Origin: Nostoc sp. DedSLP01
Lineage (GTDB): Bacteria; Cyanobacteriota; Cyanobacteriia; Cyanobacteriales; Nostocaceae
Reading direction: 5' to 3'
Length of the DNA stretch: 64,000 bases
Assembly (NCBI GenBank): GCA_034530875.2
Contig: JAVRCJ020000034.1
Location: 9,625-73,624 of the forward strand
In this document: positions 19,266 to 50,371 of the stretch, piece by piece
Layout of the letters: each line of letters begins with the position of its first letter
Position numbering within the stretch: the stretch's first letter is position 1
Made by a program: the position numbers and the translations under genes
Notes under the pieces: model-generated
Seen by the model: only the letters and a program-made list of their open reading frames with translations
Database searches by the model: none
What the model was told of the DNA's origin: nothing

Positions 19266-19335
19266 AAAGCTAAAAGTATTTTATTATTGTGAGATTTTTT
19301 AAAATCGCACCTTTCTATGTACTTAGAAGTTGCAG

Positions 19336-26691: not shown

Positions 26692-27109
26692 TCTTGATGG
26701 GCTAATAGTTAGGATGAATGCAAAATATTCTGATAATGGTACTAAAATAGCTGTTTATGATAGATTATGAGATAGAAATGTTACATTAACAACATGAGCA
26801 TTTAAAAGCAGCAAAATTCAGAATTTTCAATGTATTAATTTACTCTTTACAGGTTCAATTGTTAAAAGTGAATATGCTTGTAATCAAGCATTAGCTACTA
26901 ATCAGGTATAACTTTCTATACCAGGATTACTTAACTACAGGATTATTTAACTAATAGCTGGCTTAAGCAAGCTTTTTAGCTAAAAAATGTTTGAATTATT
27001 ACAATTTAATATTTTTCCCACAAAGTAAATAGAAACAATCTTAAAAGTCTTAAAGTTTCTATTATGGCTTTGCTAGCTCAGCATTATTAACAATATTTGA
27101 GAGAAAATT

Positions 27110-28531
27110 ATGTTACCAGAGTACTCAGAGACTCAGAACAATGGCAACTCTAGTGAGTCAACACCAAGAGTTTCAGAAGCTGAAATACAGCAATTACGAG
27201 TAAATAAAGCTGCAAATCAACGGCTGAATTGGTTCCATGGTAAGGTTTTGAAAAATGGTCGGTATGAAATTGAACGACCATTAAATCAGGGAGGATTTGC
27301 TATTGTTTATCTTGCTAAAGATACGCAAACAAAGCAACAAGTAGCTCTCAAAGTTCTTAAAATTGAGTTGCAAGAAGAGTATGAGCTTGAGAGCCTTGAA
27401 GAAAACTTTGTCAAAGAAGCGATTTACTTATCAAAGTGTGAGCATCAGTATATTGTGCAGTTTAAAGATATCTTTAAGGACTCTGATACTTGGTGCATAG
27501 TTATAGAATATATTGAGGGTGAAGACTTAAATAGTTGGGTGAAGAACAATGGTTCTTTATCAGAAAAGGAAGCGATACATTACATTAGGCAAATAGGTGA
27601 GGCATTAAAGGAACTTCATGCTCATAATTTATTGCATAGAGATGTTAAACCTAAGAATATTATTAGGAGAGCCAATGGCTCAGAAGTAGTTTTAATTGAT
27701 CTAGGGATATCTCGGAAGTTTTCTCAAAACCAAACTGATAAACATACTCCTTTATTAACACAAAATTTTGCGCCAATCGAGCAACATTTAGAAAAATATA
27801 AAAGAGGAGCTTTTACCGATGTTTATGCATTAGCAGCAACACTATATTATTTAATAACTGGAATAGAACCGAAATCTTCTCTCTCTAGAAAAGAAGGTGA
27901 AGAACTGGATACTCCTTCAGAAATTCTAGGTAAAAAGAATCTCAGTATTAGTCCACAGGTAAATAATGCTATTATTTTAGGAATGCAAATCTATCCTAAA
28001 GAACGCCCTCAGACAATCCAAGAATGGCTGAATTTACTTCCAGACTCCGAATCAGAATTGAAATCAGATGAAGACACAGAATTATCTATACTAACAGATA
28101 AAAATCATCCACTACTAAATCCCTTTTACTCACCAATTGAACCAACTAGTAATGATGCAGTTGGCTTAATAAATGCTCTAAATTGCCAGTTATATAGTTG
28201 GATTGCTACGTTCACAAGCCCCATAATTTTTTTAGTCACATTTGCTATTTTAAGTTGGTTAGGAACAACCTTAATTAGTGCTGGATTCTGGATGTTATTG
28301 GCAGTTGTTGCTATCATCAGTTTCTTTTTATTCACTAAAGAGCGGACTCAAAGGCAAAAGATAGGATTAATAATTAGTTCTTTTATCCCTACTCTAATCA
28401 TTTTTATTTTTGTTCCTGGTTTGAAAGATTGGAAAATACAAGGATGGGAATTTATAAAAATATTAATGTTAATACTATTAAATTGTTTATTAGGATTTGC
28501 TGTGATGAGCTTTTTTGAGGATGAAAGGTAA
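27110..28531 (+). CDS. Membrane-anchored Hanks-type Ser/Thr protein kinase
   Basis: QGGFAIVY, VALK, HRDVKPKN, DLG, FAPIE, TDVYALA; about four C-terminal TM helices. Confidence 0.9.
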   Translation: MLPEYSETQNNGNSSESTPRVSEAEIQQLRVNKAANQRLNWFHGKVLKNGRYEIERPLNQGGFAIVYLAKDTQTKQQVALKVLKIELQEEYELESLEENFVKEAIYLSKCEHQYIVQFKDIFKDSDTWCIVIEYIEGEDLNSWVKNNGSLSEKEAIHYIRQIGEALKELHAHNLLHRDVKPKNIIRRANGSEVVLIDLGISRKFSQNQTDKHTPLLTQNFAPIEQHLEKYKRGAFTDVYALAATLYYLITGIEPKSSLSRKEGEELDTPSEILGKKNLSISPQVNNAIILGMQIYPKERPQTIQEWLNLLPDSESELKSDEDTELSILTDKNHPLLNPFYSPIEPTSNDAVGLINALNCQLYSWIATFTSPIIFLVTFAILSWLGTTLISAGFWMLLAVVAIISFFLFTKERTQRQKIGLIISSFIPTLIIFIFVPGLKDWKIQGWEFIKILMLILLNCLLGFAVMSFFEDER

Positions 28532-29609
28532 ATTGTCAACTTTATACCAATTTATGAAAAAAAGAAAAATTATTCCATTAATAATACTTTTTGTAATTTG
28601 TCCTATTGCTTTACTAATAGTAAATTTCGTGAATCTAGAACAAATTAGAACTCCACAAAATGTAGGAAGTGCTAATTATCACAACATACCGCCTCAGACT
28701 TATGACAGAAAAACTTTTGCCGAAGTGCAAGTTCCTGAAGGAACATTTAATTATGGTGGGAGTACGACTTGGGCCACTATTCGTGGATCTATTGATCAAA
28801 AAATTCAAGATGCTACTAAACGAAAATTTAAGTTAAATTATGTAGATCATCCCAGAGGTAAAACACCAGGTTCAATTACAGGTATTAGGATGTTATTAAA
28901 TGATAAACTACACTTTTCTGTGTCTTCTCGTCCACTCGAGCCTCAAGAAAAACAAAATTTAAAAGAAATTCCAGTGGCAATTGATGGGATCGCGATCGCA
29001 GTTAATCGTAATTTACCAATAGAAAGTCTGACAATAGAGCAAATTAAAAACATTTATACAGGTCATATTAAAAATTGGAATGAAATTGTCTCTAGTCCAA
29101 ATGTACCAATCAAACCCTATATTCGCGATCCTAGAGATGGAGGTACAGTAGAATACTTTTTAAAGGAAGTCTTAAAAATAGAAAAAATAGAAGAACTAGG
29201 ATCTAGTGTTGAATTCGTCCCAGATACAACTCACGGCGTACAAAAAGTTAACCAAAAGAGTGGAGGTATCTATTTTGCCTCTGCTCCTGAGGTAATTAAA
29301 GAATGTACTGTTAAAACAGTACCACTTAAACAGAAGTTAGAGCCATCTTTTGCAATTCCGCCTTACAGACCACCGTTGTTTTCTCCTGAAGATTGCCTTA
29401 AATATAAAGATAAGATAGAAGCTAATACAGCGGCATTTCGTAACGGTACTTATCCAATTACTCGTAAATTATTTGTGATTGTCAAGCAAAATGATCCTAT
29501 AAAAAAGGAAGCTGGAGAATCTTATGCAAATTTACTGTTGACACAAGAAGGTCAAGAACTGCTAGAGAAGATTGGATTCGCTCCTATTCTAAACTCTTCT
29601 AACAATTAA
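28521..29609 (+). CDS. PstS-like periplasmic binding protein with an N-terminal membrane anchor
   Basis: NYGGSTTW, PGSITGI, VAIDGIAIAV, YPITRKLFV; overlaps the kinase stop codon. Confidence 0.85.
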   Translation: MKGKLSTLYQFMKKRKIIPLIILFVICPIALLIVNFVNLEQIRTPQNVGSANYHNIPPQTYDRKTFAEVQVPEGTFNYGGSTTWATIRGSIDQKIQDATKRKFKLNYVDHPRGKTPGSITGIRMLLNDKLHFSVSSRPLEPQEKQNLKEIPVAIDGIAIAVNRNLPIESLTIEQIKNIYTGHIKNWNEIVSSPNVPIKPYIRDPRDGGTVEYFLKEVLKIEKIEELGSSVEFVPDTTHGVQKVNQKSGGIYFASAPEVIKECTVKTVPLKQKLEPSFAIPPYRPPLFSPEDCLKYKDKIEANTAAFRNGTYPITRKLFVIVKQNDPIKKEAGESYANLLLTQEGQELLEKIGFAPILNSSNN

Positions 29610-30922: not shown

Positions 30923-31135
30923 TTTTGTATCCTCACGCCACTGCTTTGAGTATTCCCAAAATCAAGGGATTTTGCCCATTTCTATTTATTTATCAAGATA
31001 GAATACATGCGTCAGTCGTCAGAATTCAGTATGAATAACTGGGTTTAATACCCCCACACAATCGTAGATTTGGTGGTGCAACAATTCAGTCGCGGGTCTG
31101 AATAAGAGACTTTCTTGTTCTGACACCTGAATTCT

Positions 31136-31158
31136 GTTAGCGTAGCGGGGCGTAGCCC
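31136..31158. repeat. 23-nt small dispersed repeat
   Basis: GTTAGCGTAGCGGGGCGTAGCCC, identical at 49377-49399; degenerate copy near 32694. Confidence 0.75.
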
Positions 31159-31290
31159 ATTCTGAATTCTTCTTCAAGGCAATATTAATTTTTAATTTTT
31201 AATTCTTAATTTTTAATTTGAAGGGGGTTGACTCTTGACTCTTAAACATTGAACATTAACTATTGACTATTAATTCTCCCGTTACCTTTT

Positions 31291-32577: not shown

Positions 32578-32757
32578 GTAACCTAAGTAAAGAAATAATT
32601 GCTCCATTACGCCTGAGGATAGGAGCGCCCTTCAATTTAGCTGTCTATAATTAGCGGTAGGTTTAAATCTCTTTTTAATTGATTCTGATTGCTGTTAGTG
32701 CAGCAGGGTCTAGCGCATTCTGAATTCTTTTTCAATAAACTTTGAAATTTCTCAATT

Positions 32758-33291
32758 ATGAAACCTAACTTAGAAGATATTACCAACAGTCCTCATCGCC
32801 GTCAAATTCTCAAAACTGCTCTTATCTTTCTGGCTGGCTTAACTACAACATCAGTCACATATTTTTTCAATCCCAAATCTACAAAAAAAGCACAAGCAAT
32901 TGTTGTGCAACGGCCCAATGAGTTTGAACTCAAAGGCAAAGGTACTCAAATTAAGTATTCTATCCTGAACGAAGTTCCACAGCTTGATTACAGAACTCAA
33001 AATACTTTCGCTCATTTCAGTGGCGATGAAATTCAAAGATTAACTACTGATATTGGAACACTAGTTACGGTCATTCTCAGCAAACCGAACCCTAATGTAG
33101 GAGGAAATACGCTGAAACTCAGCTTTCTATTACCCACTATCAACTTACCTATCGGTAGTGTAGAAACTACTGTCCAAACTCAAGCAATTCTCACTACCGA
33201 AAAAACATCAGGATTAATCCGAAGACCAATATTTGGACAATTTCAATCATACGAAACTTTCATACTTAATGGAACTGCTAGATACCGTTAG
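32758..33291 (+). CDS. Putative Tat-exported beta-rich hypothetical protein
   Basis: HRRQILK twin-arginine motif, hydrophobic stretch and AQA cleavage site. Confidence 0.65.
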   Translation: MKPNLEDITNSPHRRQILKTALIFLAGLTTTSVTYFFNPKSTKKAQAIVVQRPNEFELKGKGTQIKYSILNEVPQLDYRTQNTFAHFSGDEIQRLTTDIGTLVTVILSKPNPNVGGNTLKLSFLLPTINLPIGSVETTVQTQAILTTEKTSGLIRRPIFGQFQSYETFILNGTARYR

Positions 33292-33747
33292 AGCCATCTG
33301 AATCTGAGTTCGGCAATCTTTTCCATTAAGTCACAAGTGACTTTATTTACTCGTAAGCGGCGATCGCTAGTTTCAAAGAGTCCTTCTAATGATATCCAAA
33401 TGCGCGATCGCTAATGTTAGTTTTTCCAGATAGGGCAATACTCTGCAAAACTGCTCCGCGCGCTACTTCAGCAAGAAGGGAACTCTTAACAGGGAGGAAC
33501 GGCCTGTTAAGAGTTCCCCGTTCCCTCTCTATACCAGAAGTCAGAAATCAAATTGGATTACTATTTATGAGTCGTAAATATTTTTGATAAATTTCTGCGA
33601 AAAATTTGAAATTAAGTTTGATAACTAGGTAGTAGACCCTACTTATTGATGCATGAAACATCAACTTATGAATTCGATAATTGGGACTTCAACCAGCCAA
33701 GGAAATCTCCAGAATACTTCTGGAAGTATTCACAAAGGAGATTGTTG

Positions 33748-34395
33748 ATGATAAAAATGCACGCTGTACGCGACCTGAATCAACAACTATCTCAACTTGT
33801 TGCCGAAGCCTGTTCCTATCCAGCAAAGAGTTTGATACGGCGGCAAAAGCTGAATGAGATAGTTAGAGTTGTGATGAAATCAGGCAAATTATGGAGAGAG
33901 AACACACCTTACTATAACGATGCTCTGCAACAAACTTGGTTGTTTTTCTGCCGGAATCTAGAGCAATATAATCCAGAGCGTTGTAGCGTAATCACTTGGC
34001 TCGACAATTGCCTTAAGTGGCGATTGCAAGATTTCCGCACTTGGGAAGCGAAGAATCAAGCTAAAAATGTTTCTAGTTCTACCTTAGAAATTGAGGAAAT
34101 AACAAACACCATCGAAAATTTACCAGCAGATCCAGAGATTCCGCCAATTTTAGAAGAAACTTCTCAATGGGCAATAACAGATCCAGATGGAGATTTAGCC
34201 ACTACTCACGTCAAAGGACGGCCTGAAGTAACTTGTCAAATTTTAATTCTACGACGCTTACCTCCAGAAACCCCTTGGAAGGATATTGCTCAGGAGTTTA
34301 ACTTGCCCCCATCAACCGCACCGAATTTTTATAAACGCGAATGTCTGCCTCGGTTGCGAAATTTTGCACTCAGACAGGGATATCACGAAATTTGA
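33748..34395 (+). CDS. Sigma-70/ECF-like factor of the type found next to DUF1822 genes
   Basis: Region-2-like YNDALQQTWLFFCRN...VITWLD...LKWRL; C-terminal HTH PWKDIAQEFNLP; AAGGAG RBS before ATG 33748. Confidence 0.7.
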   Translation: MIKMHAVRDLNQQLSQLVAEACSYPAKSLIRRQKLNEIVRVVMKSGKLWRENTPYYNDALQQTWLFFCRNLEQYNPERCSVITWLDNCLKWRLQDFRTWEAKNQAKNVSSSTLEIEEITNTIENLPADPEIPPILEETSQWAITDPDGDLATTHVKGRPEVTCQILILRRLPPETPWKDIAQEFNLPPSTAPNFYKRECLPRLRNFALRQGYHEI

Positions 34396-34448
34396 CATTC
34401 AAGCAGAGATAACTCAAAGAAGGAATATTTGGGAGAAGAAAAACTACT

Positions 34449-35372
34449 ATGATTCATAGTACTGAGAATATAAAAGAAAAATCTATTCCAGTGGCTATCA
34501 CTCAAGCAGCACTGAGAATAGCACGACAATTTGCCGAGGAGCAGCCAACTCTAGAAAAGAAAAAGCAGGTTTATCTTAATACCCTGGCTGTATGTATTGT
34601 GAATGACTATATGCAAATGATGGACATTGCTACTGACTTGAAAGGTAGCGACAGTTGGAATCCAGCTATGCGCCTTTATAGTGATGTTGCAGATTTGAAA
34701 TTGACTAAATTAGGCTACTTAGAATGTCGGTGTGTTAAGTCTGGTGCAGAGATTTGTTACATTCCACCAGAAGTCCCAGACGATAGAATAGGTGTAGTTG
34801 CAGTTGAGTTAGACACAGAGTTTCAAAAAGCGATTCTGGTGGGGTTTGCTAAAACAGTAAAATCTGGCGAGATGTGCATAGATCGGTTGCAAAGTATTGA
34901 CGACTTACTTACACACTTAGATCGCCTTGAAAGTAACCAAAGCGAAGTAAACCTAAGTCGATGGTTGGAGAATACTTTTGCCGTAGGTTGGCAGCCCATT
35001 GAAGAAATTTTAGCTCCAAAAGCACTACAACCAGGTTTTCGTTATGGAACTGGAGTAACGCGAAGTAAACTAATCGATTTAGGGTTAGAACTACCAGAAC
35101 AAATCGTAGCCTTAATTGTCACAGTTACGCCAATAAGTTCAGTGGAAATCCATTTGAAATTCCAGATACATTGTACCGATGAGGAAGTCTACTTACCTAA
35201 CGATCTGATTGTAAAGGTATTAGATGAAAAGGGAGTTACTGTCATGGAAGCTCATGCTAGAAGCGGTAGTACTCACATAACACTAGAATTTCAAGTTCAA
35301 ATGGGAGAACATTTTAGCGTGACCATAGAATTAGGAAATAATAGTATTATTACGGAAAAATTTTTTGTTTAA
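34449..35372 (+). CDS. DUF1822-family protein
   Basis: KKQVYLNTLAV, VADL...GYLECR, DRIGVVAVEL, VNLSRWLEN...GWQ. Confidence 0.85.
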   Translation: MIHSTENIKEKSIPVAITQAALRIARQFAEEQPTLEKKKQVYLNTLAVCIVNDYMQMMDIATDLKGSDSWNPAMRLYSDVADLKLTKLGYLECRCVKSGAEICYIPPEVPDDRIGVVAVELDTEFQKAILVGFAKTVKSGEMCIDRLQSIDDLLTHLDRLESNQSEVNLSRWLENTFAVGWQPIEEILAPKALQPGFRYGTGVTRSKLIDLGLELPEQIVALIVTVTPISSVEIHLKFQIHCTDEEVYLPNDLIVKVLDEKGVTVMEAHARSGSTHITLEFQVQMGEHFSVTIELGNNSIITEKFFV

Positions 35373-35397
35373 TTACATACATTTTCGGTTATTAATT

Positions 35398-37809
35398 ATG
35401 CAGAAATTGGTTGTTTTAAAGCTAGATGGTGATTTAGCTCAGGGGGTAAGAGTGATGTTGGAGATTGGGGCAGAAAGAGATCGCCCCACTATAGAAGTTC
35501 GAGGCTACCTTCCCCCCCAACCAGAGATTATCGCAGACTATAACCTTTGGCAGGCAACCTACCGCAGCTTGGAAAATTTTCGCATCACACCTATAAGTAT
35601 TAGTGTTGGAAATTCTCTATTTGAGCATTTGAACAAATGTCGCAAATTAGAGGAGAAGTTGAGCGAGCAAATAAATAGTTGGCTCAATTGTGAGTCTTTT
35701 CGCCCAGCTAAGGAAAAATTACTCAAACAATTAATGGCTGATGACACAATGCGGATATTAATCAAAACAGATGATATTTGGTTGCGTCGTCTTCCTTGGC
35801 AACTATGGAATTTCTTTGAAGATTACTCAAAAGCAGAAGTTGCCCTCAGCGGTATAGAGTATGAATATCTGCCAAAAACAAAAACACTCATTGCTAAATC
35901 TCACGTAAAAATTCTCGCTATTTTAGGTAACAGTCAGGGAATTTTTATTGATAAAGATAGAGAAATATTAGAAAAATTACCAAATGCAGAAATAACTTTT
36001 CTTGTAGAGCCACAACGCGATCGTATCAACGATCGCCTTTGGGAGCAAGACTGGGATATTTTATTTTTTGCAGGTCACAGTTTTAGCCAACAAGATGGGA
36101 AAAGCGGTAAAATTTATATTAACAAAACTGATTGCTTAACAATTGATGAGCTAAGGTTTGCGCTAAAGAAAGCTGTCAGTAGAGGATTGCAATTAGCTAT
36201 TTTCAATTCTTGTGATGGCTTAGGATTAGCCCATCAATTAGAAGATTTGCATATCCCTCAAATTATTGTGATGCGGGAGCCAGTGCATGATTTGGTAGCG
36301 CAGGAATTTTTAAAGAATTTTTTGGACAAATTTGCCAGTGGTGAGTCTCTACACTTAGCAGTACGAGAATCAAGAGAAAAATTACATGGTATTGCAGATA
36401 GATATCCCTGCGCGATGTGGTTACCTGTAGTCTGCCAAAATCCAGCAGCAGTACCGCCAACTTGGAAAGACTTTCTCAAAAAGCCAGAAACCGTAAATAA
36501 TAAACTTCAACGAAATAATTACATTACCGAATTCCAGTCTCGATGGTTTAAAGTTCAAAAAGTGCTTTTGTTGAGTTTAATAATCGCTATTTTAGTAATG
36601 GGATTGAGAACATTTGGCTTGTTGGAGTTATCAGAACTAAAAGCTTTTGACCAGTTCATGGGGATGCGGCCAGAGGAAAAATCAGATTCGCGTTTCTTGA
36701 TAGTTACTGTTGATGAAGCCGATATTCAGTATCAAAATCAAATGAAAATGAATATGCGATGGTCTTTATCAGATGGAGCACTAGCTCAACTGTTGAAAAA
36801 ATTGGATCGCTATCAACCAAGAACTATCGGTTTAGACGTTTACCGCGATTTTCCTGTAGACCCGAACTTTGCAGATTTAGGAGCCCGTCTCAAACAAGAT
36901 AACCGCCTTTTTGCTGTATGTAAAGTTCCTGCACCTCTTGATGGTGCCCCAGAAGGTACTCCTCCACCTCCTGAAGTCCCAGAAGAACGTTTAAGTTTTA
37001 GCGATTTTGTCGCAGATAATTATGAAATTGCTCGCCGTCAGCTTTTGCACTTGACTCCTCCTGTGACATCTCCCTGTAGTGCCAAATATTCTTTCAGCCT
37101 GCAAATCGCACTTCATTACCTAGAGGCAAAAGGTATTAAAGCAGATATTACCCCAAAGGGGCAGTTGCAGATTGGGAATGTCTTGTTTAAGCAATTAAGA
37201 ACTTACACTAGTGGCTACCAAGGAGTAGATGCAAAAGGTTACCAACTATTGCTCAATTATCGCTCTCTCCCGTCTTTAGAAAATATTGCTCAGCAAGTGT
37301 CTCTCAGAGATGTCCTTAACGAGCAGATAAACCCTCAATTACAGGAGTTATTGAAGGATCGTATTGTTTTGATTGGTGTCACTGCTCCCACTACTACTGA
37401 TTATTGGAAAACTCCTTACAGTGCTAAAGCACCACTCAATCAAAAGCAGATACCGGGTGTTTTTGTACAAGCACACGCCATCAGCCAAATTATCAGTGCT
37501 GTTCTAGACCGCAGACCTCTACTTTGGTGGTGGCCGAGGTGGGTGGAAGCGCTATGGATATGGGGATGGTCAGCTATTGGAGGAACTCTAGCATTGTTGA
37601 TTCGGCAGCCACTTTACTTAGGAGTGGCTGGAGCTACAGCGCTATTGTCACTATATGTAATTTGCTTTGGTATTTTTATACAAGCAGGATGGGTGCCACT
37701 CGTTCCTGCGGCTTTGGCGTTAGTGGCTACTCAAATAGTAATTGTATATGCGATCGCAGAGCGTTTTGGTTTTCAAGCTAGCAAAAGAAATCCGGATTAC
37801 GAATTATGA
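35398..37809 (+). CDS. CHAT (caspase-like) protease + CHASE2 membrane sensor
   Basis: LPWQLW, FFAGHS and IFNSCDGL (His/Cys dyad); TM; CHASE2 (IGLDVYRD, IVLIG, PGVFVQAH); three C-terminal TMs. Confidence 0.9.
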   Translation: MQKLVVLKLDGDLAQGVRVMLEIGAERDRPTIEVRGYLPPQPEIIADYNLWQATYRSLENFRITPISISVGNSLFEHLNKCRKLEEKLSEQINSWLNCESFRPAKEKLLKQLMADDTMRILIKTDDIWLRRLPWQLWNFFEDYSKAEVALSGIEYEYLPKTKTLIAKSHVKILAILGNSQGIFIDKDREILEKLPNAEITFLVEPQRDRINDRLWEQDWDILFFAGHSFSQQDGKSGKIYINKTDCLTIDELRFALKKAVSRGLQLAIFNSCDGLGLAHQLEDLHIPQIIVMREPVHDLVAQEFLKNFLDKFASGESLHLAVRESREKLHGIADRYPCAMWLPVVCQNPAAVPPTWKDFLKKPETVNNKLQRNNYITEFQSRWFKVQKVLLLSLIIAILVMGLRTFGLLELSELKAFDQFMGMRPEEKSDSRFLIVTVDEADIQYQNQMKMNMRWSLSDGALAQLLKKLDRYQPRTIGLDVYRDFPVDPNFADLGARLKQDNRLFAVCKVPAPLDGAPEGTPPPPEVPEERLSFSDFVADNYEIARRQLLHLTPPVTSPCSAKYSFSLQIALHYLEAKGIKADITPKGQLQIGNVLFKQLRTYTSGYQGVDAKGYQLLLNYRSLPSLENIAQQVSLRDVLNEQINPQLQELLKDRIVLIGVTAPTTTDYWKTPYSAKAPLNQKQIPGVFVQAHAISQIISAVLDRRPLLWWWPRWVEALWIWGWSAIGGTLALLIRQPLYLGVAGATALLSLYVICFGIFIQAGWVPLVPAALALVATQIVIVYAIAERFGFQASKRNPDYEL

Positions 37810-38651
37810 TCGGCAAAAAATTATTACTTTTCCCAAGGCTAAAACTTGCTTACATTGTCTTTTTAGTACTTCTTAGCTTGCCAACTTATTCTCCAACGGT
37901 ATCGGCACAGTTTACTAATTCAGCTAACAAGCCTTTTTTTGGTACACCCATCAACTCTACGCGACCGAACTTTCCAGATAACGGTATACCTACCGGCCGC
38001 CGCAAAGGAGGGACAAGCAGAGATGCTTGTTCTGTCCTCAGTATGCCTGTTACTGCCATAGTCCCTGGTGAAGAAACTTTGAGTTCAGCCCAAAAAGGAA
38101 CGTTACCTCAAACTATCTCCTCAAAATCTTTCCTAGCATTAACAGTTAGTGAATATCCAATCTTTTGGTTTTACATTCCCAATTTGCCCCCAAATTTACA
38201 CTCTGCTGAATTTGTTTTGCTCAATGAAATAGAAGATGATATTTACCGTAGTCGGCTAACCCTACCTGAAAAGCCTGGAGTTATCAGCATTAGCCTTCCG
38301 CAACAACCAAAATATTCTTTAGATGTAGATAAAAAGTATCATTGGTATTTGAAAGTTTATTGTAACGATCTACGAAAAACATCTGGGTACTTTTATATTG
38401 ATGGTTTAGTGCAACGGGTTGCGTTGACTCAGAAGCTTGAGAGCCAGTTAAAAGCAGTAAAACCAAGAGAATATATAGCTTATATTGATAATGGTATTTG
38501 GTACGATGCCATAACAAATTTAGCTAGCCTCCGGAGTAGCAATTTACAAAATGATACCCTACAAAAAGATTGGGCTAACTTATTAAAATCTGTTGGCTTG
38601 CAAGACATTGCTGAAGAACCCATTGTTCGGTACTATAAGGCTGAGGAGTGA
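37806..38651 (+). CDS. DUF928-family exported protein
   Basis: Signal peptide; GRRKGGTSRDAC, PIFWFYIP, YHWY, GIWYDA, WANLLKSVGL; ATGA overlap with the upstream gene. Confidence 0.88.
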   Translation: MIGKKLLLFPRLKLAYIVFLVLLSLPTYSPTVSAQFTNSANKPFFGTPINSTRPNFPDNGIPTGRRKGGTSRDACSVLSMPVTAIVPGEETLSSAQKGTLPQTISSKSFLALTVSEYPIFWFYIPNLPPNLHSAEFVLLNEIEDDIYRSRLTLPEKPGVISISLPQQPKYSLDVDKKYHWYLKVYCNDLRKTSGYFYIDGLVQRVALTQKLESQLKAVKPREYIAYIDNGIWYDAITNLASLRSSNLQNDTLQKDWANLLKSVGLQDIAEEPIVRYYKAEE

Positions 38652-38732
38652 TACCAATTCGCAATTAAAAAACTTAGATACAGTAAAGCTTACAGGGTTT
38701 ACATCTGTATCATGTTTTTCGTGAAATGGTAT
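38651..38732. mobile_element. Short MITE-like element
   Basis: ATACCAATTC ... GAAATGGTAT ends; related ends near 5844, at 48866-48960 and near 50875. Confidence 0.5.
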
Positions 38733-38796
38733 GATTGTAAGAATTCAGCAGATTTAACTGAGAATCTTCCCAATCAGATGAAAGCAATTTGGTAGC

Positions 38797-41478
38797 TTAT
38801 AACCAATTACCTACTAACACATAAGGTGCCCAGAAATAAGGACGTTTTTCATTATTGAGAACAGCTATTTGAGCGTGTTGGAGTGCTTGGGCTTTAGTCA
38901 CCCCAGTTTTTAGTTCTCGGTAGAAATAACTCATAAATTTGCTGCTAAACTCATCATCTACTGACCATAAGGTTGCGACGATACTGCGCGCTCCTGCTCG
39001 TACCGCCACCCCTGCTAATCCTAAAGCAGCTCGTTTATCTCCAGTTGCTGTTTGACAAGCGCTGAGGACGAGTAATTCAATGGCATTAGACTGACTAGAG
39101 CCACTTTGCCGAAATAAATTCACAAAATCTTTTACCTTAACCAGTCGATCCCAAGCCAGAATAAAGGTTTCTTCGGGGTTGGAACTAAACTTCCCGTGGG
39201 TTGCTAAGTGGACAACAGAAAAAGGAACCTTTTTTATTTGATTTTGAAGGTTAGTTTCGGTAAATGTTTGATTAAAAAGTTGTTTAGTTTTAGAGACTTC
39301 AGACTGAATAGCTTCTAATTCACGCGCTACATTTTTGAGAGGAGGAAACTCTAGATTTCCTATTTGGCGTTTCTCGCTGACTCCGCCACTTAAGACGTTT
39401 AACTTTACCTGTTGCAAAGGTTTCGGATTGGTTAGTTGTAGACCTGGAGTGAGAGCGATCGCATATTTCTCCACCAAATATTTTTGCTGTTCTTTATCGT
39501 AGAGAACTGCCATCGGAATATTCCGTAAAGATCCATCTAGTACGAATACTAAAGTTTTAATATCACTTTTGACTAACTCTGCTTCGGCTGGTCGGATTAA
39601 CCAGTCATATAACTTTTGGGACTGCTTTTTCACTTGAAAAGTTCGGGTGATATCCCGTAAATATTCTCCCAAATCTAATATGGTTTTCTCAACTGTATCT
39701 CGGTCTACAATCGTCGTATAGTGGCGAAGTTCTTGTTGGCCGGGCAACTTAATAATAATTTCTAAGCGGTCAGCCAAAATAATTGCATAAATAGTTGCTG
39801 CTGACTTATCTCGATCGACTACTCGATCTATCTCTACCTTGGCATCCAAGCAGGCCGATCCAAAAAAGTTTTCTAGTTCTGCCAATTGTAGAGATTCCAT
39901 TGTTTGACGCGCTTGCTTAAGATTTTCTTGAGTAATTTGTTGGTTGCCAGTTTGTTGCAAGCTCAACTCAAGAAACTCCCGATAGACGGGTTCTACACTT
40001 TCCTTGAAGGAAAACTGCACGTCTGGATGCATGGCAACCAAATCGCTACTCAAAGACTGGAGAATGTTTACAGCTTGACTGTAATTAGCAAGAGCTTTTG
40101 TAACATTTCCCTGAGCTTTATAAAGCCTTCCTAACTGCCATTGCCAACGATAGGCAATATCTGATGCCTCAATGGTTTCGGCTAGATTTAGGGCTTGTTG
40201 GGTGAGGTCTTGAGCATCGCTGTATTGCTGGGTCTGCTCGTAAAGTCCACCCAGATATCCTAAAGCATAAGCTAATGCACGAGTATCTTTGATATTTCTA
40301 GCTTGTTGAACAGCAGTGGCTAACACCTGACCTATTTGTGTCCGCGAAGGAGCGTTGGAGATGTCCGACTGTCTTAGCTGCATTAAATTTTGAGCAAAAT
40401 TAATTTGAGCATAAACTGCTGCTCGACTCGCTGGGAGGTTGATAATTTCAGGCTGAATTTGAGTCCACAATACCTGAGCGTCTGACCCCGATTTAGTCTC
40501 CACCGATAAGTCCAACTGATTGAGTTGTGCTTGAATTCGAGTGATTAATGAGGTGGATGTTGCTTGTGCCTGTTGATAAAACTGCAATGCACTCGGAAAG
40601 TCGTGCTGGGCTTGGGCTGTTGTGCCTAAACTCACATACGATGCAGCTATTTCCTCGGGAGATTTTAGCTTTTGAGCGAGGGTTAAAGTTTGTTGCAAAA
40701 TGCGTTGGGATTTGTCTAAATCGCCAACTACTCGCAACACATTGCCAAGGCTACGCAGTGCCGTAGCTTTGAGTAAAGAGTCTGGTTGAGTTTGGAGATT
40801 TTTTTCTAGCTGGGTTAGTGTTTCGTTAGCCCTATGGTAAAGACCTAAGTATTGCAGGGCTTGGACTTGATTGATTAGGCTGCCAGTAATTCCAGCATTA
40901 TTACCTACTTGTTTGTAAGTCGCAGTAGCTTGCTCCCAAGTAGTCAGTGCTTGCTCTGCTTGCCCTAGTGCTAATTGCAGATGTCCTTGAGTGTTTAAGA
41001 CTTGTGCGAGAATGAGTTTGGATTCTTTGGTTTGCAGTTGATTGTTTTGCAGAATTTCTAAGCTTTGTGCGATCGCAAAACTTCCCTGTTGCCATTGTCC
41101 AAGTTGCTGGAAAGCCAATGACATTAAGCTCAGCACTTTGGCTTGATTAAACTTATCCCCAAGAGATTGATAAACTTGGGCTGCTTGTTGCCAAACCTTA
41201 GCTGCATCAGCAAACTTTTCTTCTTGATATAAACTTTTACCTTGTTGCGCTAGTTGTGAAGGGTCTGGCAGACTTTGGACAATAGGAGCATTTTCTGGAA
41301 CTTTCGCTAAAACAGGCGCTTGCATAGTCCCGATTACCAACAAGTTGAGCAATTGTCCCCATAAAATTACCAGTACACTTGCTCCCACGTATGAGGGTTT
41401 CCAAAACCAACGGATACTACGAAAAAAACCGGGATGTTTTCTGGCTATATCAACATAAAAGTAACGTTTACGGGACAT
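38797..41478 (-). CDS. TPR-repeat + CHAT-domain protease, N-terminally anchored or exported
   Basis: N-terminal hydrophobic segment; TPR-like repeats; VHLATHG, VLSACQTA, ATLWSVDD, PYFWAPYVLVGNW. Confidence 0.93.
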   Translation of the reverse strand: MSRKRYFYVDIARKHPGFFRSIRWFWKPSYVGASVLVILWGQLLNLLVIGTMQAPVLAKVPENAPIVQSLPDPSQLAQQGKSLYQEEKFADAAKVWQQAAQVYQSLGDKFNQAKVLSLMSLAFQQLGQWQQGSFAIAQSLEILQNNQLQTKESKLILAQVLNTQGHLQLALGQAEQALTTWEQATATYKQVGNNAGITGSLINQVQALQYLGLYHRANETLTQLEKNLQTQPDSLLKATALRSLGNVLRVVGDLDKSQRILQQTLTLAQKLKSPEEIAASYVSLGTTAQAQHDFPSALQFYQQAQATSTSLITRIQAQLNQLDLSVETKSGSDAQVLWTQIQPEIINLPASRAAVYAQINFAQNLMQLRQSDISNAPSRTQIGQVLATAVQQARNIKDTRALAYALGYLGGLYEQTQQYSDAQDLTQQALNLAETIEASDIAYRWQWQLGRLYKAQGNVTKALANYSQAVNILQSLSSDLVAMHPDVQFSFKESVEPVYREFLELSLQQTGNQQITQENLKQARQTMESLQLAELENFFGSACLDAKVEIDRVVDRDKSAATIYAIILADRLEIIIKLPGQQELRHYTTIVDRDTVEKTILDLGEYLRDITRTFQVKKQSQKLYDWLIRPAEAELVKSDIKTLVFVLDGSLRNIPMAVLYDKEQQKYLVEKYAIALTPGLQLTNPKPLQQVKLNVLSGGVSEKRQIGNLEFPPLKNVARELEAIQSEVSKTKQLFNQTFTETNLQNQIKKVPFSVVHLATHGKFSSNPEETFILAWDRLVKVKDFVNLFRQSGSSQSNAIELLVLSACQTATGDKRAALGLAGVAVRAGARSIVATLWSVDDEFSSKFMSYFYRELKTGVTKAQALQHAQIAVLNNEKRPYFWAPYVLVGNWL

Positions 41479-43585
41479 GGCACTTGGCTGATATCAAGGC
41501 TGGATTATGGGGTGTAGTAGTTAATGTAGAAGCTGTTAGGACTACCTCACCCTTATCATTAGTTGCCCATTCAGTAGCTTCCACAATTTGAGTAGGTGGA
41601 CTAACTTTTATCGGATTTGGAAAAGAGGTAGTAGTAGGAGGGTTATTTTCGCCTGAAATAGGCGTATCTAAATCCATCCAAACTGCATCATTGTTTAGGG
41701 GAGCGTTGGGGTTGGGTGGCAAACCACCTCGTCCAATGACTACAAACTTGCTTTGAGCAGAACTTGAACTGTTGCAGGCTTGAGCGATTTCGGGAGCTGG
41801 TGATATTGTTGGTAAATTTATTAAACCACTGTTGAGGTCGATATCAGGTGTGTTGATTTCCACAGTTCCATTAAGCTCAGGACTTCCGCCAGTAGCAGTG
41901 ATGTCACTAAAATCTGTTCGATTCTGGCGGCGTTGAATACCATAGATACCGGAAGTACGTATGTCAACTCTTCCACCTTTTCCTTGAGATGCATTAGCAG
42001 TTATATCACTATTCTCTCTTGGTATAGCTACAATCAAGCCCGACCGTGCATTAATTATGATATTACCGCCGTTTCCGCGTGCGTTGGTAGAAATTTCGCT
42101 GTTGCGACGCAGTGACAATAACTTTTGCAAGTTCAATTTTATATTGCCACCATCACCGGAGTTAGCTCGACCACTGAGCTTGCCTTTGTTATCCAAATTA
42201 ATAGAACGAGCAGTAATTTCCAAATCACCTGCTTGGTTTGTGCCTAGACTGCTCACAGTTATGTCAGCGCCATTTAAGACATTTAATTCTTCAGCTTTAA
42301 TTATGATGCTTCCCCCCTTTGTAGTAGACTCTCTAAAACGGGAAGCCGAAATGCTTGCTCCATCCTGAACAATCAACTGCCTAGTTTCAATCCTCAATTC
42401 TCCGGCCTTTCCAATGCCTTGTGTGAAAGCAAACAAGCCACTGGGGTTACCTTGTCGTGAGGTTCCAATGAGTTTGATCGAGTCTGTTGCGGTTACGGAT
42501 AACTTTCCTCCATTTCCTTGACTAAGAGCGGAAGCTGAAATATACGCCCCATCTTGAACAATCAACTGTCCAGTTTCAATCTTCACTTCTCCAGCATTTC
42601 CAGATGCTACGGTATCACTTAACAGATAGCTTCCTCCCAGAAGTTTTACTGACTCCGATGCCTTCACCAGTAATGTTGCTCCCGATTTTGAGCCTACCGT
42701 ATTAACCGTAATAGCTGAATCATCGGCGAGTGTAACGCGCTTGCCTTGTATTTGAATAGCACCACTGCCTTGACCACTAACAGTTACTGTAGTAGTTTGG
42801 GTAAGAGATACATTTGCTCGCGCTACATTATCAGGAAAACTTAAGCGGAAATTGTTGTTATCAATGTTCAATCCTACCGTTCCTGTTCCTGCTAATCCTC
42901 CTAATTCGATTCGACCGTTTGGAGCTTGCAGTGTTGCTCCTTCTAAATTCACATCGCCTCCCAGTAGAACTAAACTCCGACTTGCAGGAACGGATAGTGC
43001 AATTGGTCCTGTATTAACTTGAATCGGGCTAATAGGCTCAGATGCAATTTGATTAAATAGAAATGCAGAAGGATTGACACTCAGCAAGGGGTTAAGCGGA
43101 TTGACGGGTGAAGTCATGGAAAATTCTGCACCGCCCGAAAACTGGATCGCACTGGCTGTTGTTCCGATAAACGAACCGCCAAGATTTAATTTGGCATTTT
43201 TTCCAAATATGATGCCCTTGGGATTAATTAAAAAGAGATTAGCTTGGGCTTGAAGTGTTCCCTGGATATCAGAGGGGTTTGCTCCTGTAACTCGCACCAA
43301 AATATTGTTGATACCAGAGGCGCTATGAAAATTTACTATCTCTTGATTTTTAACACTAAAGTTGCTGAAACTATGGAAGAGATTTGTATTCCCAACGGTT
43401 GTACCGCCTGTAATTTGATAATTTTTGCCGTCGGTTAACTCCACTTTAGTTCCCAAAGAGGGATCGGCAGTGACCTCCTGAGCATATGTGCGATCGCCTC
43501 CTTCTATGCCAATCTCACCCGCTAAAATCACCAAGCCCGATAACCCTAAATGGTAACTGCAACTCAAGCAACTTCTTAAACTCAC
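41468..43585 (-). CDS. Filamentous haemagglutinin N-terminal (TPS) domain exoprotein
   Basis: NLFHSF, LFLINPKGIIFG, beta-helix-like repeats, C-terminal GRGGLPPNP...IVEATEW. Confidence 0.9.
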   Translation of the reverse strand: MSLRSCLSCSYHLGLSGLVILAGEIGIEGGDRTYAQEVTADPSLGTKVELTDGKNYQITGGTTVGNTNLFHSFSNFSVKNQEIVNFHSASGINNILVRVTGANPSDIQGTLQAQANLFLINPKGIIFGKNAKLNLGGSFIGTTASAIQFSGGAEFSMTSPVNPLNPLLSVNPSAFLFNQIASEPISPIQVNTGPIALSVPASRSLVLLGGDVNLEGATLQAPNGRIELGGLAGTGTVGLNIDNNNFRLSFPDNVARANVSLTQTTTVTVSGQGSGAIQIQGKRVTLADDSAITVNTVGSKSGATLLVKASESVKLLGGSYLLSDTVASGNAGEVKIETGQLIVQDGAYISASALSQGNGGKLSVTATDSIKLIGTSRQGNPSGLFAFTQGIGKAGELRIETRQLIVQDGASISASRFRESTTKGGSIIIKAEELNVLNGADITVSSLGTNQAGDLEITARSINLDNKGKLSGRANSGDGGNIKLNLQKLLSLRRNSEISTNARGNGGNIIINARSGLIVAIPRENSDITANASQGKGGRVDIRTSGIYGIQRRQNRTDFSDITATGGSPELNGTVEINTPDIDLNSGLINLPTISPAPEIAQACNSSSSAQSKFVVIGRGGLPPNPNAPLNNDAVWMDLDTPISGENNPPTTTSFPNPIKVSPPTQIVEATEWATNDKGEVVLTASTLTTTPHNPALISAKCHVP

Positions 43586-43722
43586 AAAACTTCTCTCCTA
43601 ACCTTTGAAAGTTACTTAATTGGAAGCTAGAACACGACTTTAGTAATACTTGTGGAAATCTTCTACCCCTGTGTTTATAAGAAACTCTGCTAGCGGGGTT
43701 AGGTTTTTGATTATTACTTGTT

Positions 43723-44385
43723 TCAAGCCAACACTCGATAAACTTGACTCCAGTCAAGGCCAGGGGCTAGCGAAGCTATTTGCTGTCCATTGCTAAAAAG
43801 ATTACCAGTATTTGAATCGTAGCTCAAAGGATCAAAATCGGAATTAAAAGTTTCGTAAGCTGATATATTGTAATTTTTTACAGTATAATTTTTTCCGATA
43901 CCAGAGGTAAGTTTGAAATCTTTGCTGGGTTGAGCAACAGCAGGGGTAAGTTTTAAGTCTTTGCTAGATCGACCAAGAGCAGGAGTAAGTTGGAAATCTC
44001 TGCGGGATTGAGTAAGAGCAGGGGTAAGTTTTAAATATTTGCTCGATAGAGCGCGAGCAGCCGATTTCAACTCAGCGATACTTATATTAAAAATACCTTG
44101 CAAAACAACAGTATCAGACGATCCAGGAGGAAGGGTAGTAACTAAAAGTATATCTTCGCTAACTGAGAAGTCTGTAATTCGATCGATACCTCCACTTAAG
44201 TAATTCAGGACAAAGGTATCTCTACCACCACCACCAGTAAGAATGTCATTATCAGCTCCTCCCACTAAACGGTCTTCACCCGAACTGCCTATTAAAGTGT
44301 CATCACCTCGATAACCGTATATTTGATTACCTCCATCCGAAACTGCTAGCCAGTCGTTTCCAGAGGTGCCGTCAATCTTTGCCAC
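43723..44385 (-). CDS. Small RTX-type Ca2+-binding protein with internal 13-aa repeats
   Basis: GGxGxD-like nonapeptides, DRITDF; about four LTPA-containing repeats. Confidence 0.8.
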   Translation of the reverse strand: MAKIDGTSGNDWLAVSDGGNQIYGYRGDDTLIGSSGEDRLVGGADNDILTGGGGRDTFVLNYLSGGIDRITDFSVSEDILLVTTLPPGSSDTVVLQGIFNISIAELKSAARALSSKYLKLTPALTQSRRDFQLTPALGRSSKDLKLTPAVAQPSKDFKLTSGIGKNYTVKNYNISAYETFNSDFDPLSYDSNTGNLFSNGQQIASLAPGLDWSQVYRVLA

Positions 44386-49586: not shown

Positions 49587-50371
49587 GGCGTTGCTGAATC
49601 CAAGTATGAATCATGCGATCGCCTCAAGCTTGCGGGCGCGTAGCGCCCGCAGCGCCACGGAACCGTACTTGAGATAATGTATGAGCAATCGAATAGATAG
49701 TTTAAGCATTTCCTCGGACTTGGAATAACAAAAGGTTTTACGATGAAGCCTAGCTAAATAATGTCTAAAACGGCTATTTTCGCCTTCTACTCTTGTCATA
49801 TAAGTTTTGCTTACAATCCGATCCTCATTGCTAATAAAACAAGGGTAAACTGGATAGCCATCTGTGACGTAAAAATAAGAATGCCAACAGTTTATTATCT
49901 GCCACAAAAGCTTAAAAGTGTCTTTACTTCTGTCTCCTAAAACCCAGACTATAACTCCTGAGACATGCTATGCTTATTTACTGCTGTCCACAACCAAACT
50001 TTGTTTTTTTTTACCTACAAAAGTTTCAAGTTCATCAACTTGAGTAATTTCTGGTATTTCATTATATTCAGGCGAATTAGGTAGGGTATTTCCCATCTCT
50101 CTAACCCAATTAATTACAGTCGTATGATGAACTTTATTTACTCGTTGAATTGCACGAAATCCTGAACCATTCACATACATCTCTAAACACTCTTTTTTTA
50201 TTTCTTCAGGGTAACCCTGCTTTTCATAAGAATCTATAAACTGACGCTCACAATTAACACATATGTGATTTTGTTTACTAAGCTTTTTACCATTCTTGCG
50301 GATATGAGTGGATGCACACCTTGGACATTTCATCGCGATCGCTCAAATTCATACTTCAATTATGCAACGCC
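49587..50371 (-). mobile_element. IS1-family element, probably inactivated
   Basis: TIRs GGCGTTGC-N6-AAGTATGAAT; InsA zinc finger (CPRC...CVNC) at 49974-50333; A9 slippery site; InsB motifs TDGYPVY and RHYLARLHRKT; extra 5-nt duplication at 49965-49974. Confidence 0.9.

Follow-up and report, generated by a model that had tools for sequence, protein, structure and literature searches.

A candidate receptor-protease/anti-sigma/sigma switch built on CHAT-CHASE2 and DUF1822 proteins in Nostoc sp. DedSLP01

We suggest that a gene cluster of Nostoc sp. DedSLP01, at 32758–44385 of the analysed 64,000-nucleotide stretch (the window), encodes a receptor-protease/anti-sigma/sigma switch. On balance, this reading is reasonably probable: a CHASE2-gated CHAT protease would cut the DUF1822 protein after R198, the N-terminal fragment would be degraded and the sigma factor would be freed. 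By analogy, the cluster's mode of action probably resembles that of the heterocyst switch HetF-PatU3-HetZ, with extracellular signals as the input. The set of genes has been published: Kaur, Iyer, Burroughs and Aravind (2021, PMC8195603) described an ECF-like sigma, DUF1822 and EACC2-CHAT-CHASE2 computationally as an EACC2 system, and rows of their supplement also list a 'TM+beta_rich+TPRs' (DUF928-like) gene and a TPR-caspase downstream. The lack of precedent assumed in the first-pass annotation of this DNA therefore does not hold. New here are the sigma fold and the predicted sigma:DUF1822 complex, the DUF1822 fold, the linker Arg, the separate halves of DUF1822 and the tracking of CHASE2 by DUF928; the cut at Arg198 is a prediction.

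All eight ORFs were found at the coordinates given by the first-pass annotation, and the tight gene overlaps (37806–37809 and 41468–41478) were as described there. Neighbourhoods were counted in 89 DUF1822 loci, with random 12-kb windows of this genome as the chance baseline. A sigma-like gene lay immediately 5′ of DUF1822 on the same strand in 82/89 loci, and a CHAT gene immediately 3′ in 56/89, compared with a CHAT gene in 5% of the random windows; 21 of the 89 loci had no CHAT gene nearby. The association exceeds chance. As in the EACC2 systems of Kaur et al., a constant N-terminal module precedes the caspase-like CHAT domain, a TM-CHASE2-TM sensor follows it, and ECF sigma and DUF1822 genes adjoin, in the TRADD-N-independent form. 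TRADD-N had no match in this genome, but the search matched nothing anywhere, so its absence is not proven. The supposed independence from CRISPR also stood: the window held no CRISPR-like repeat family, no Cas match occurred among 28 proteins scanned with Pfam or 17 with PADLOC, and PADLOC reported no defence system among these 17 window proteins. The type III-E CRISPR Craspase system was rejected as an identity for the cluster, since no CRISPR array or Cas7-11 lies beside the TPR-CHAT gene.

The sigma-like gene (33748–34395, + strand; 215 aa, short type) likely starts at 33748, where AGGAG stands upstream and which agrees with homologues of about 215–222 aa. Neither the 33646/33748 ORF nor the 32758 ORF matched any Pfam or NCBIfam family; the sigma-like family comprises 803 homologues. 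In the AlphaFold2 model (pLDDT 84), residues 6–98 matched region 2 of SigC (Z 10.0, rmsd 1.9, 83 aligned), the next five rows were also ECF sigmas, and the family profile matched R. sphaeroides SigE (E 6e-4). Sigma factors topped the Foldseek rows for the whole model, none of them at E ≤ 0.001. In the sigma-4 region, helices 163–209 were modelled with high confidence in the whole protein, with no Pfam sigma-4 match and a whole-length Foldseek E above 0.001. The protein models as an ECF-like sigma, and the sigma fold on which the first-pass annotation had made its scheme depend is present in the model. Upstream, a candidate ECF-type, self-activated promoter, GCG(A/T)AA-N19-TA(A/C)(C/G) (33597–33625, + strand), forms a block kept in 5/5 close orthologues. 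The strict pattern precedes 8/52 short-sigma genes, 0/37 long-sigma genes and 0.1% of 2000 random upstream regions, counts that are partly circular because the pattern was derived from the same sequences.

The next gene (34449–35372, + strand; PF08852) encodes a DUF1822 protein of 307 aa, the predicted anti-sigma and CHAT substrate. No solved structure related to it by sequence was found. Its model (pLDDT 91) reads as a PD-(D/E)xK-nuclease-fold domain followed by an Ig-like domain. The predicted N-domain (about residues 10–166; 34476–34946) matched I-Ssp6803I (Z 10.1, rmsd 2.8, 114 aligned) and Holliday-junction resolvases (Z 8.2 and 7.2). The C-domain (about 202–307; 35052–35369), an Ig-like beta-sandwich with generic matches (Z 6–7.5), is likely a protease-docking module. 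We therefore rejected the reading of DUF1822 as a TPR protein by Kaur et al., who also proposed self-cleavage; the model here has the two folds just named, joined by a linker with a conserved Arg.

Structure prediction gave a confident sigma:DUF1822 complex, with a score of 0.86 against 0.02 for the best of 3 controls; the mark for this score was passed by 116/157 solved complexes and 2/215 mismatches. The runs had at least 82% of contacts in common and a partner pLDDT of at least 82. DUF1822 residues 10–158 form the predicted interface, clamping the sigma-2 and sigma-4 regions, and this prediction supports the earlier proposal of DUF1822 as a sigma-binding protein. The canonical catalytic motif of PD-(D/E)xK nucleases is D..(D/E)xK. 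It occurred in 0/89 DUF1822 homologues, 70/89 having Arg in place of Lys. The site N44-D82-E92-R94, which lies outside the predicted sigma interface, reads N-D-E-R in 41/48 short-sigma partners and 0/35 long-sigma partners, and N-D-D-R in 3/3 distant small-genome relatives; these residues were paired with the catalytic motif by secondary-structure order and not from a printed alignment.

The receptor protease, EACC2-CHAT-TM-CHASE2-TM-TM (35398–37809, + strand), likely starts at 35398 within an ORF opening at 35365, since homologues start MxKLVVL. Pfam places CHAT at residues 130–352 and CHASE2 (PF05226) at 407–740, and hydropathy fits a cytoplasmic CHAT, a helix at 393–411, a periplasmic CHASE2 and helices at 749–786. 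The two analyses agree with the predicted cytoplasmic CHAT joined to a CHASE2 sensor. Residues 12–135 are a module conserved ahead of CHAT in 54 distinct proteins, which we infer to be EACC2, named from the description by Kaur et al. Its dyad comprises AGHS at 236 (H238, 36076) and NSC at 281 (C283, 36211). Both residues are invariant in 40/40 CHAT-CHASE2 proteins, and a GH..NSC-type pattern occurs in 54/54 EACC2-CHAT proteins, some homologues of which bear C-termini other than CHASE2. The exported TPR-CHAT protein described below carries ATHG at 759 (H761) and SAC at 806 (C808), so both dyads are intact, as first noted. The receptor matched HetF weakly (E 5.8e-5; HetF model score 21.6 against a cut-off of 1200). 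In the tree, cytoplasmic EACC2-CHATs clustered with HetF at 97/95 on a long EACC2-CHAT branch, and exported TPR-CHATs fell in a CHAT clade apart from the cytoplasmic ones; by profile-profile score, EACC2-CHAT was closer to exported TPR-CHAT (263) than to HetF (188). EACC2-CHAT genes are also present without an adjoining DUF1822 gene (C7).

The predicted cut site, Arg198 (35040–35042, + strand), lies in the flexible linker LQPGFR↓YG; the linker block 191–200 has a pLDDT of 55, and Arg198 is outside the predicted sigma interface. The Arg is found in 78/89 DUF1822 homologues, followed here, as in 7/78, by Tyr and elsewhere mostly by Ser or Gly. An alignment-free linker motif occurred in 61/80 sequences against 22.3 in shuffles (Lys control, 8 against 7.8), and a strict motif in 40 against 6.9. 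Seventeen loci where no CHAT gene is seen still have the Arg, and 7 loci that do have a CHAT gene lack it at the aligned position. The halves of DUF1822 assort apart, the N-half with sigma genes and the C-half with CHAT genes. Proteins with the C-half only stand immediately 5′ of EACC2-CHAT genes in 5/7 loci fetched, fused to TRADD-N, PIN or nothing, with one fused to sigma (L148). In each of the 3 distant relatives with small genomes that were fetched, a fusion of the N-half with a membrane helix and a TonB-C-like domain is encoded directly 5′ of a sigma gene. The conserved Arg and the company of the C-half suggest, at the level of sequence, that DUF1822 is the CHAT substrate, as proposed earlier.

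A CHAT/likely anti-sigma/ECF sigma chain has been shown experimentally in cyanobacteria, contrary to the first-pass annotation, which knew of no demonstrated mechanism. In Anabaena PCC 7120, HetF cleaves PatU3 after R117 (PMC9457339), and PatU3 in turn inhibits the ECF sigma HetZ (PMC13342950). This is a closer precedent than type III-E CRISPR. Both systems have a membrane-anchored cytoplasmic CHAT with a GHS/NSC dyad, an Arg-specific cut (predicted for DUF1822) in the protein encoded behind the ECF sigma gene, an inhibitor touching sigma-4 (likewise predicted here) and similar cut sites, Y-R↓S in PatU3 and, by prediction, F-R↓(S/G/Y) in DUF1822. However, hetF lies at an unlinked site and its product carries periplasmic TPRs where the receptor has CHASE2, HetZ (400 aa) and the 215-aa sigma align at 20% probability, and PatU3 is without the nuclease-fold domain modelled in DUF1822. 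Orthology was rejected, as true orthologues of hetF/patU/hetZ lie elsewhere in this genome (C28 and C6). Homology of PatU3 and DUF1822 is weakly supported. Their hhalign probabilities were 22.9%, 3.8% and, with a deeper PatU profile, 1.5–2.8%; in one profile alignment, R117, present in 45/53 PatU sequences, falls on R198. In an Atlas feature search, the nearest other family to PatU3 was the DUF1822 C-half and vice versa (0.85 and 0.80); scores below 0.9 serve as leads only. A PatU homologue (hhalign 66–73%) with an invariant A-[YF]-A-M-R↓[SG] follows a CHAT-FHA gene in 21/25 genomes; this bridge family had no profile link to DUF1822 (0.3–0.5%).

Other systems resemble parts of the cluster. In CalpL-CalpT-CalpS (bioRxiv 2024.05.08.593097), the anti-sigma also pairs an N-domain of nuclease/toxin fold with a small C-domain and is cut in the linker, after which the N-fragment remains bound and needs further degradation. 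That type III CRISPR system differs in its Lon protease, cA4 signal, MazF fold and Ala-Ala degron, and no sequence or fold link to it was found here. In the Craspase of type III-E CRISPR (Csx29-Csx30-CASP-sigma), Csx29 (TPR-CHAT) cuts the sigma-binding protein Csx30, as predicted for DUF1822, but the protease is RNA-triggered, CRISPR-linked and cytoplasmic; Csx30 was not among the DUF1822 fold matches. DdvA-DdvS of Myxococcus xanthus (PMC11506125) is likewise reported to combine an ECF sigma with an anti-sigma that grips sigma-2 and sigma-4 and with a TPR-CHAT part lying outside the membrane; there, a single membrane protein contains both anti-sigma and CHAT, and its active site is incomplete, whereas here the two are separate proteins with complete dyads.

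Three other explanations were weighed. DUF1822 might be a latent nuclease, its N-domain active or activatable but held by the sigma-like protein and the C-domain and freed by the CHAT cut, for defence or cell death alongside transcription. The nuclease fold (Z 10.1 and 8.2), the tetrad retained by most short-sigma partners outside the interface, the C-halves joined elsewhere to PIN or TRADD-N, and the grouping of EACC2 systems with conflict systems (PMC8195603) speak for it. Yet the canonical motif is missing from all 89 homologues and the tetrad from all 35 long-sigma partners, the residue-to-motif pairing is itself inferred, PADLOC reported no system, and an anti-sigma with a toxin fold is already known in CalpT, which leaves the idea unlikely. 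The polarity could instead be reversed, CHAT cutting DUF1822 constitutively until a ligand at CHASE2, or DUF928 binding, stops the protease and silences sigma. Since HetF pressure keeps PatU3 permanently low, to the point of being undetectable in the wild type, a signal could switch the protease off instead of on; the CHAT part of HetF also retains activity when the membrane and periplasmic parts are removed. We judge this improbable to a similar degree: other protease/anti-sigma/sigma chains are signal-activated, and the candidate self-activated promoter suits, weakly, an inducible switch.

Least probable is the autoproteolysis put forward in PMC8195603, in which CHAT cleaves its own chain or that of a second receptor, with DUF1822 as an uncleaved adaptor. 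Self-cleavage of DdvA is suggested in PMC11506125, and the EACC2-CHAT genes without DUF1822 would fit. However, in residues 338–414 of the receptor, between CHAT and the membrane, no Arg reaches 60% conservation, the conserved linker Arg being that of DUF1822, and HetF CHAT on its own cleaves another protein (PMC9457339).

For the favoured cleavage of DUF1822, we propose the following course. The dyad, membrane topology and gene order of the receptor can be read from the sequence. By prediction, the nuclease-fold domain of DUF1822 clamps sigma-2 and sigma-4 and thereby keeps the ECF-like sigma silent, and the linker Arg with the Ig-like domain may form the module recognized by CHAT. The CHAT of the receptor would then cut after Arg198. 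Because this cut spares the sigma interface, the N-fragment must next be degraded or lose its grip before sigma is released, as the analogy to PatU3 and CalpT suggests. The freed sigma would fire its own promoter (33597–33625) and a small regulon. The weakest steps concern the input: periplasmic CHASE2, with DUF928 as co-receptor, may gate the protease, and in some loci a TpsA/exported TPR-CHAT pair may feed this input, perhaps cutting DUF928 at R72.

DUF928 tracks CHASE2, not CHAT. The gene (37806–38651, + strand; PF06051) encodes a predicted exported protein with a signal-like hydrophobic stretch at residues 5–23 and a GGxxR..C motif (R72, 38019, in 92% and C75 in 95% of 40 sequences). DUF928 occurs in 31/43 DUF1822 loci with CHAT-CHASE2 and 0/46 without; in this genome, a CHASE2 gene lies no more than 1 kb from 9/12 copies, and four of those CHASE2 proteins are without CHAT. 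DUF928 is likely a CHASE2 co-receptor or ligand. On the reverse strand follow the predicted exported TPR-CHAT protease (38797–41478; Pfam TPR and CHAT, 618–891), whose hydrophobic signal-like stretch at 30–48 agrees with the export or anchor segment described earlier, and a TpsA-type exoprotein with a filamentous haemagglutinin domain (41468–43585; PF05860, TIGR01901). TPS genes lie near 15/89 DUF1822 loci, 13 of these 15 with CHAT-CHASE2, and in 2.5% of random windows; TPS and TPR-CHAT appear to be optional input-side genes. For signalling to CHASE2 by TPS, DUF928 or TPR-CHAT, as first proposed, the support found was co-occurrence.

Of the flanking secreted genes in the first-pass annotation, TPS and RTX recur, though not constantly. 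The small RTX-repeat gene (43723–44385, − strand; PF00353) is loosely linked and probably no core part, an RTX gene of some kind lying near 14/89 DUF1822 loci against 6.6% of random windows. The gene for a Tat-signal-like protein (32758–33291, + strand) is incidental and was left out of the system because a homologue lies near DUF1822 in 1/89 loci, the present one. A 16-bp inverted repeat (33478–33518) and the candidate promoter part it from the sigma gene.

The locus at 32758–44385 contains eight open reading frames, two gene overlaps and two CHAT proteases with His/Cys dyads, as the first-pass annotation had stated; sequence, Pfam and motif checks agree with it. A Tat-signal gene (32758–33291), the sigma gene (33748–34395), the DUF1822 gene (34449–35372), the CHAT-CHASE2 receptor gene (35398–37809) and the DUF928 gene (37806–38651) lie on the plus strand, with 33748 and 35398 as the likely starts of the sigma and receptor genes. 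The minus strand carries genes for an exported TPR-CHAT (38797–41478), a TpsA-type TPS protein (41468–43585) and an RTX protein (43723–44385); a gene for a TpsB translocator was not found in the locus. The host is a cyanobacterium with an 8.6-Mb genome, and close homologues of the sigma bear the name Nostoc. Iterated searches of this genome yielded 7 DUF1822, 6 CHAT-CHASE2 and 12 DUF928 genes and 36 CHAT proteins, while hetZ, patU and hetF were located on contigs other than that of the window.

PF08852 was searched in 101 genomes of the phylum, and 80 regions were fetched; 24 larger genomes supplied 76 of them, and distant genomes the other 4. Five genomes whose genus was already represented (G032, G044, G056, G065 and G091) were omitted, and weak DUF1822 half-matches were left out of the first fetch, 7 of them being fetched later. 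The set of 89 loci consists of the fetched regions, 7 further loci and 7 loci of the strain's own genome, minus 5 duplicate or split rows and 4 distant rows. Filamentous cyanobacteria have 1–9 DUF1822 matches per genome. A sigma-like gene had been said to precede DUF1822 directly, and it lies immediately upstream on the same strand in 82/89 loci (47 short sigmas of the window type and 35 of the longer type, labelled by iterated search); since kin are not independent, this and the following neighbourhood counts are descriptive. The next gene downstream of DUF1822 encodes a CHAT protein in 56 of the 89 loci, a CHAT gene is in view in 68, and 43 contain a CHAT-CHASE2 gene. DUF928 was found in 31 of these 43 loci versus none of the remaining 46, and stands directly behind CHAT-CHASE2 in 28/39 cases versus 0/16 behind a CHASE2-less CHAT with the N-terminal EACC2 module. 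In the own genome, 9 of the 12 DUF928 copies lie at most 1 kb from a CHASE2 gene, four of these receptors being without CHAT, and TPS genes often adjoin those for exported TPR-CHATs. TPS and RTX genes occur at 15/89 and 14/89 DUF1822 loci; in roughly matched random 12-kb windows of the own genome, the background was 5% for CHAT, 2.5% for TPS and 6.6% for RTX. These counts therefore suggest an input module of DUF928 and CHASE2, optionally with TpsA and TPR-CHAT, and an output module of CHAT, DUF1822 and sigma. The Tat-signal gene, near DUF1822 in 1/89 loci, was rejected as a member of the system.

The sigma fold of the 33748 product was borne out by its model (pLDDT 84), which matches ECF sigma region 2 at Z 10.0 with ECF sigmas in all six best rows, and by the family profile, which matches SigE (E 6e-4). 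Pfam and NCBIfam returned no family match for this protein, and the best Foldseek rows were sigmas, none reaching E 0.001. Ahead of the gene, a two-part motif (33597–33625) is kept in 5/5 close orthologues and 3 further loci (8/52 in all; background 0.1%), and is a candidate promoter only, because the pattern was drawn from the same sequences. With a 37-base weight matrix, the own genome yielded no other strong site. The strict pattern has 99 matches genome-wide and is therefore too loose for calling a regulon; it is absent ahead of the TPS, RTX and Tat genes. Scans for sigma-70 promoters and terminators stayed at chance level (28 vs 32.1 and 13 vs 10.3). The candidate pattern also occurs about 100 bases ahead of another DUF928 gene of this genome (C36:66804). 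A perfect 16-bp inverted repeat (33478–33518) has the Tat-signal gene on one side and the sigma gene on the other.

The contigs of four RNA runs from one sample belong to a relative, mostly 90–95% alike, and thus give no proof of expression. Those of two runs skip 872 bases in frame (34080 to 34953), joining sigma residues 1–111 to DUF1822 residues 169–307, so that sigma-4 and the sigma-binding domain are lost together; either a deletion or a misassembly may explain this.

In Kaur et al. 2021 (PMC8195603), DUF1822 is called a TPR protein. This assignment was rejected based on the DUF1822 model (pLDDT 91), which is devoid of TPRs. In the model, residues 35–166 match PD-(D/E)xK nucleases (I-Ssp6803I, Z 10.1; resolvases, 8.2 and 7.2), residues 202–307 resemble a generic Ig-like sandwich, and the linker between the domains is flexible. 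Foldseek found no match to the model at E ≤ 0.001, and Csx30 and CalpT were not among the listed fold matches, which excludes nothing. Binding of the sigma by DUF1822, as proposed for an anti-sigma, gained support from the predicted sigma:DUF1822 complex, which scored 0.86 versus 0.02 for the best control. The score mark was reached by 116/157 solved and 2/215 mismatched pairs, counts that hold roughly because own alignments were used. Contacts agreed by at least 82% between runs, with a partner pLDDT of at least 82, and the predicted interface places DUF1822 residues 10–158 against sigma residues 26–69 and 131–213, i.e., both sigma domains. Alternatively, the N-terminal domain may be a latent nuclease: N44-D82-E92-R94 is present in 41/48 short-sigma partners and, as N-D-D-R, in 3 distant relatives, but in 0/35 long-sigma partners, and the canonical Lys catalytic motif occurs in 0/89 DUF1822 proteins. 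We consider this alternative unlikely.

The linker contains an Arg (R198 in the window) in 78/89 DUF1822 proteins, with the consensus A-aromatic-A-F-R|S/G. Located without alignment, a hydrophobic-R-small site lies 5–30 residues past the conserved Trp in 61/80 proteins versus 22.3 after shuffling; with Lys in place of Arg, the count matches the chance level (8 vs 7.8). The two halves of DUF1822 are also found apart, the N-half accompanying sigma and the Arg-Ig half accompanying CHAT. C-half-only proteins lie directly upstream of EACC2-CHAT in 5/7 loci; in one further locus another gene intervenes, and the remaining locus has a fusion of sigma and DUF1822C. Two such proteins carry TRADD-N or PIN in front. 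The N-half opens a long acidic protein in 3/3 small-genome distant relatives; this protein contains a membrane helix, ends in a TonB-C-like region and is encoded immediately ahead of a 190-aa sigma-like gene, a classical anti-sigma layout. The fusions of N-half, acidic linker, membrane helix and TonB-C-like end (L088:6959-10427, L089 and L090) are from phylum members of 1.7–2.3 Mb, a family in which 31/35 genomes have one match. A natural fusion at L148:5014-7146 (710 aa) combines a sigma-like region with the C-half.

The window cluster probably works like HetF-PatU3-HetZ but is not orthologous to it. According to PMC9457339, the CHAT part of HetF cleaves PatU3 at R117/S118, and the fragments are then degraded. 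Cryo-EM identifies HetZ as an ECF sigma, and PatU3 is likely its anti-sigma (PMC13342950; the text covered mentions neither DUF nor HetF). The PatU of the own genome carries Y116-R117-S118. In one PatU-DUF1822 profile alignment of 165 columns, both Args coincide (22.9%, E 9e-4; controls ≤2.5%); other builds gave 3.8% and 1.5–2.8%, and a 150-protein PatU search made the link no better. Iterated HMM searches gave zero matches common to PatU and DUF1822 or to HetZ and the sigmas. In the Atlas feature search, the named cluster nearest to PatU was DUF1822 (0.85), and, with DUF1822 clusters excluded, the best three for the C-half were PatU-type (0.80); these reciprocal matches are leads and together one kind of evidence. 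The homology of the DUF1822 C-half with PatU is thus plausible but unproven.

A PatU homologue (66–73%) at C4:205474 has its Arg in 26/26 cases within P-x-A-[YF]-A-M-R|[SG], a DUF1822-type motif, and its family shows no profile link to DUF1822. Such a gene follows a CHAT-FHA gene in 21/25 genomes, likely a second HetF/PatU-like protease-substrate pair. This pair, with a PatU homologue of 215 aa, is found at L153:5749-8122, which is C4:203748-206121 of the own genome, here with a PP2C phosphatase gene ahead. A tree built from 36 catalytic cores places the six CHAT-CHASE2 proteins, this CHAT-FHA and HetF in one group (97/95), separate from exported TPR-CHATs, on a long branch; profile scores favour the opposite grouping. 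The first 130 residues of HetF alone did not match the EACC2 module (0.25%). PatU domains stand behind P-loop NTPase-like or pentapeptide-repeat-like regions in P0176, P0263 and P0250 (sequence reading). At L067:2906-5716, the gene directly ahead of a short sigma-DUF1822 pair encodes a 936-aa fusion of the HetZ N-part with an unrelated C-terminal region, a rearrangement or misassembly.

Based on the above, we suggest that the window cluster probably acts as a receptor-protease, anti-sigma and sigma switch. In the resting state, sigma would be clamped by DUF1822, as predicted. A signal at CHASE2/DUF928 would alter CHAT activity, and CHAT would cleave DUF1822 after R198. Since R198 is outside the predicted sigma interface, release likely requires degradation of the N-fragment; this was shown to be needed for CalpT (bioRxiv 2024.05.08.593097) and is stated for PatU3, whereas here it is likely by analogy. 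The freed sigma would then drive its own promoter. An opposite polarity, in which an outside signal shuts CHAT off and silences sigma, is as unlikely as the latent nuclease. Autoproteolysis was proposed by Kaur et al. (PMC8195603), and self-cleavage of the receptor CHAT is, in our estimate, very improbable. DUF928 has its own conserved GGxxR..C motif (R72, 92%), speculatively a site for the exported TPR-CHAT, with perhaps a modest chance of being so. PDB sequence searches returned nothing for PatU, DUF1822, DUF928 or the CHAT part of TPR-CHAT; for the EACC2-CHAT part, the matches did not rise above noise.

A broader reading would join all parts into a bacterial receptor-caspase-nuclease pathway, and taken whole it is decidedly unlikely. 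The Arg-linker and Ig domain would be a portable CHAT cleavage tag on many N-terminal payloads (the sigma-binding nuclease fold, PIN, TRADD-N and a sigma itself), with PatU3 a derived member. In the short-sigma class, the released N-domain would act as an anti-sigma and also be a live nuclease whose N-D-E-R site is unusual. The two-protease cascade would cross the membrane, DUF928 being cut by the exported TPR-CHAT and the inner CHAT switched on by CHASE2.

The window cluster is real and belongs to the EACC2 systems. EACC2-caspase-CHASE2 with ECF sigma and DUF1822 was described by Kaur et al. 2021 (PMC8195603), and CHASE2 next to DUF928 was noted in PMC5587647; surprise is limited because the gene set was already published. 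What appears new is the putative receptor-gated switch, its two-module substrate and a named predicted cut site. Outside subscription journals, no paper was found that connects DUF1822 with PatU3, with a cut site or with a nuclease fold, and nothing on CHASE2, CHAT and hemagglutinin combined. If the proposed switch is true, one cut-site rule would account for the large orphan family DUF1822, HetF-PatU3-HetZ would fall within a wider class of protease, anti-sigma and sigma modules, and this would be the first CHAT protease directly gated by a membrane sensor domain.

Elsewhere in the window, two copies of a 66-nt element (31127–31192 and 32685–32750) each precede one of two neighbouring genes, and the RTX-repeat gene contains three 39-nt tandem repeats (43895–44050). 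Two short minus-strand ORFs at 49611–50333 resemble IS1-type transposase pieces. Consecutive genes at 25384–29609 encode an FHA and winged-helix regulator, a membrane Ser/Thr kinase and a PstS-like binding protein. At 17108–20749, genes for two MvdD-type ATP-grasp ligases accompany a 150-aa ORF that contains internal repeats, likely a peptide cluster of the microviridin type that has a multi-core precursor.
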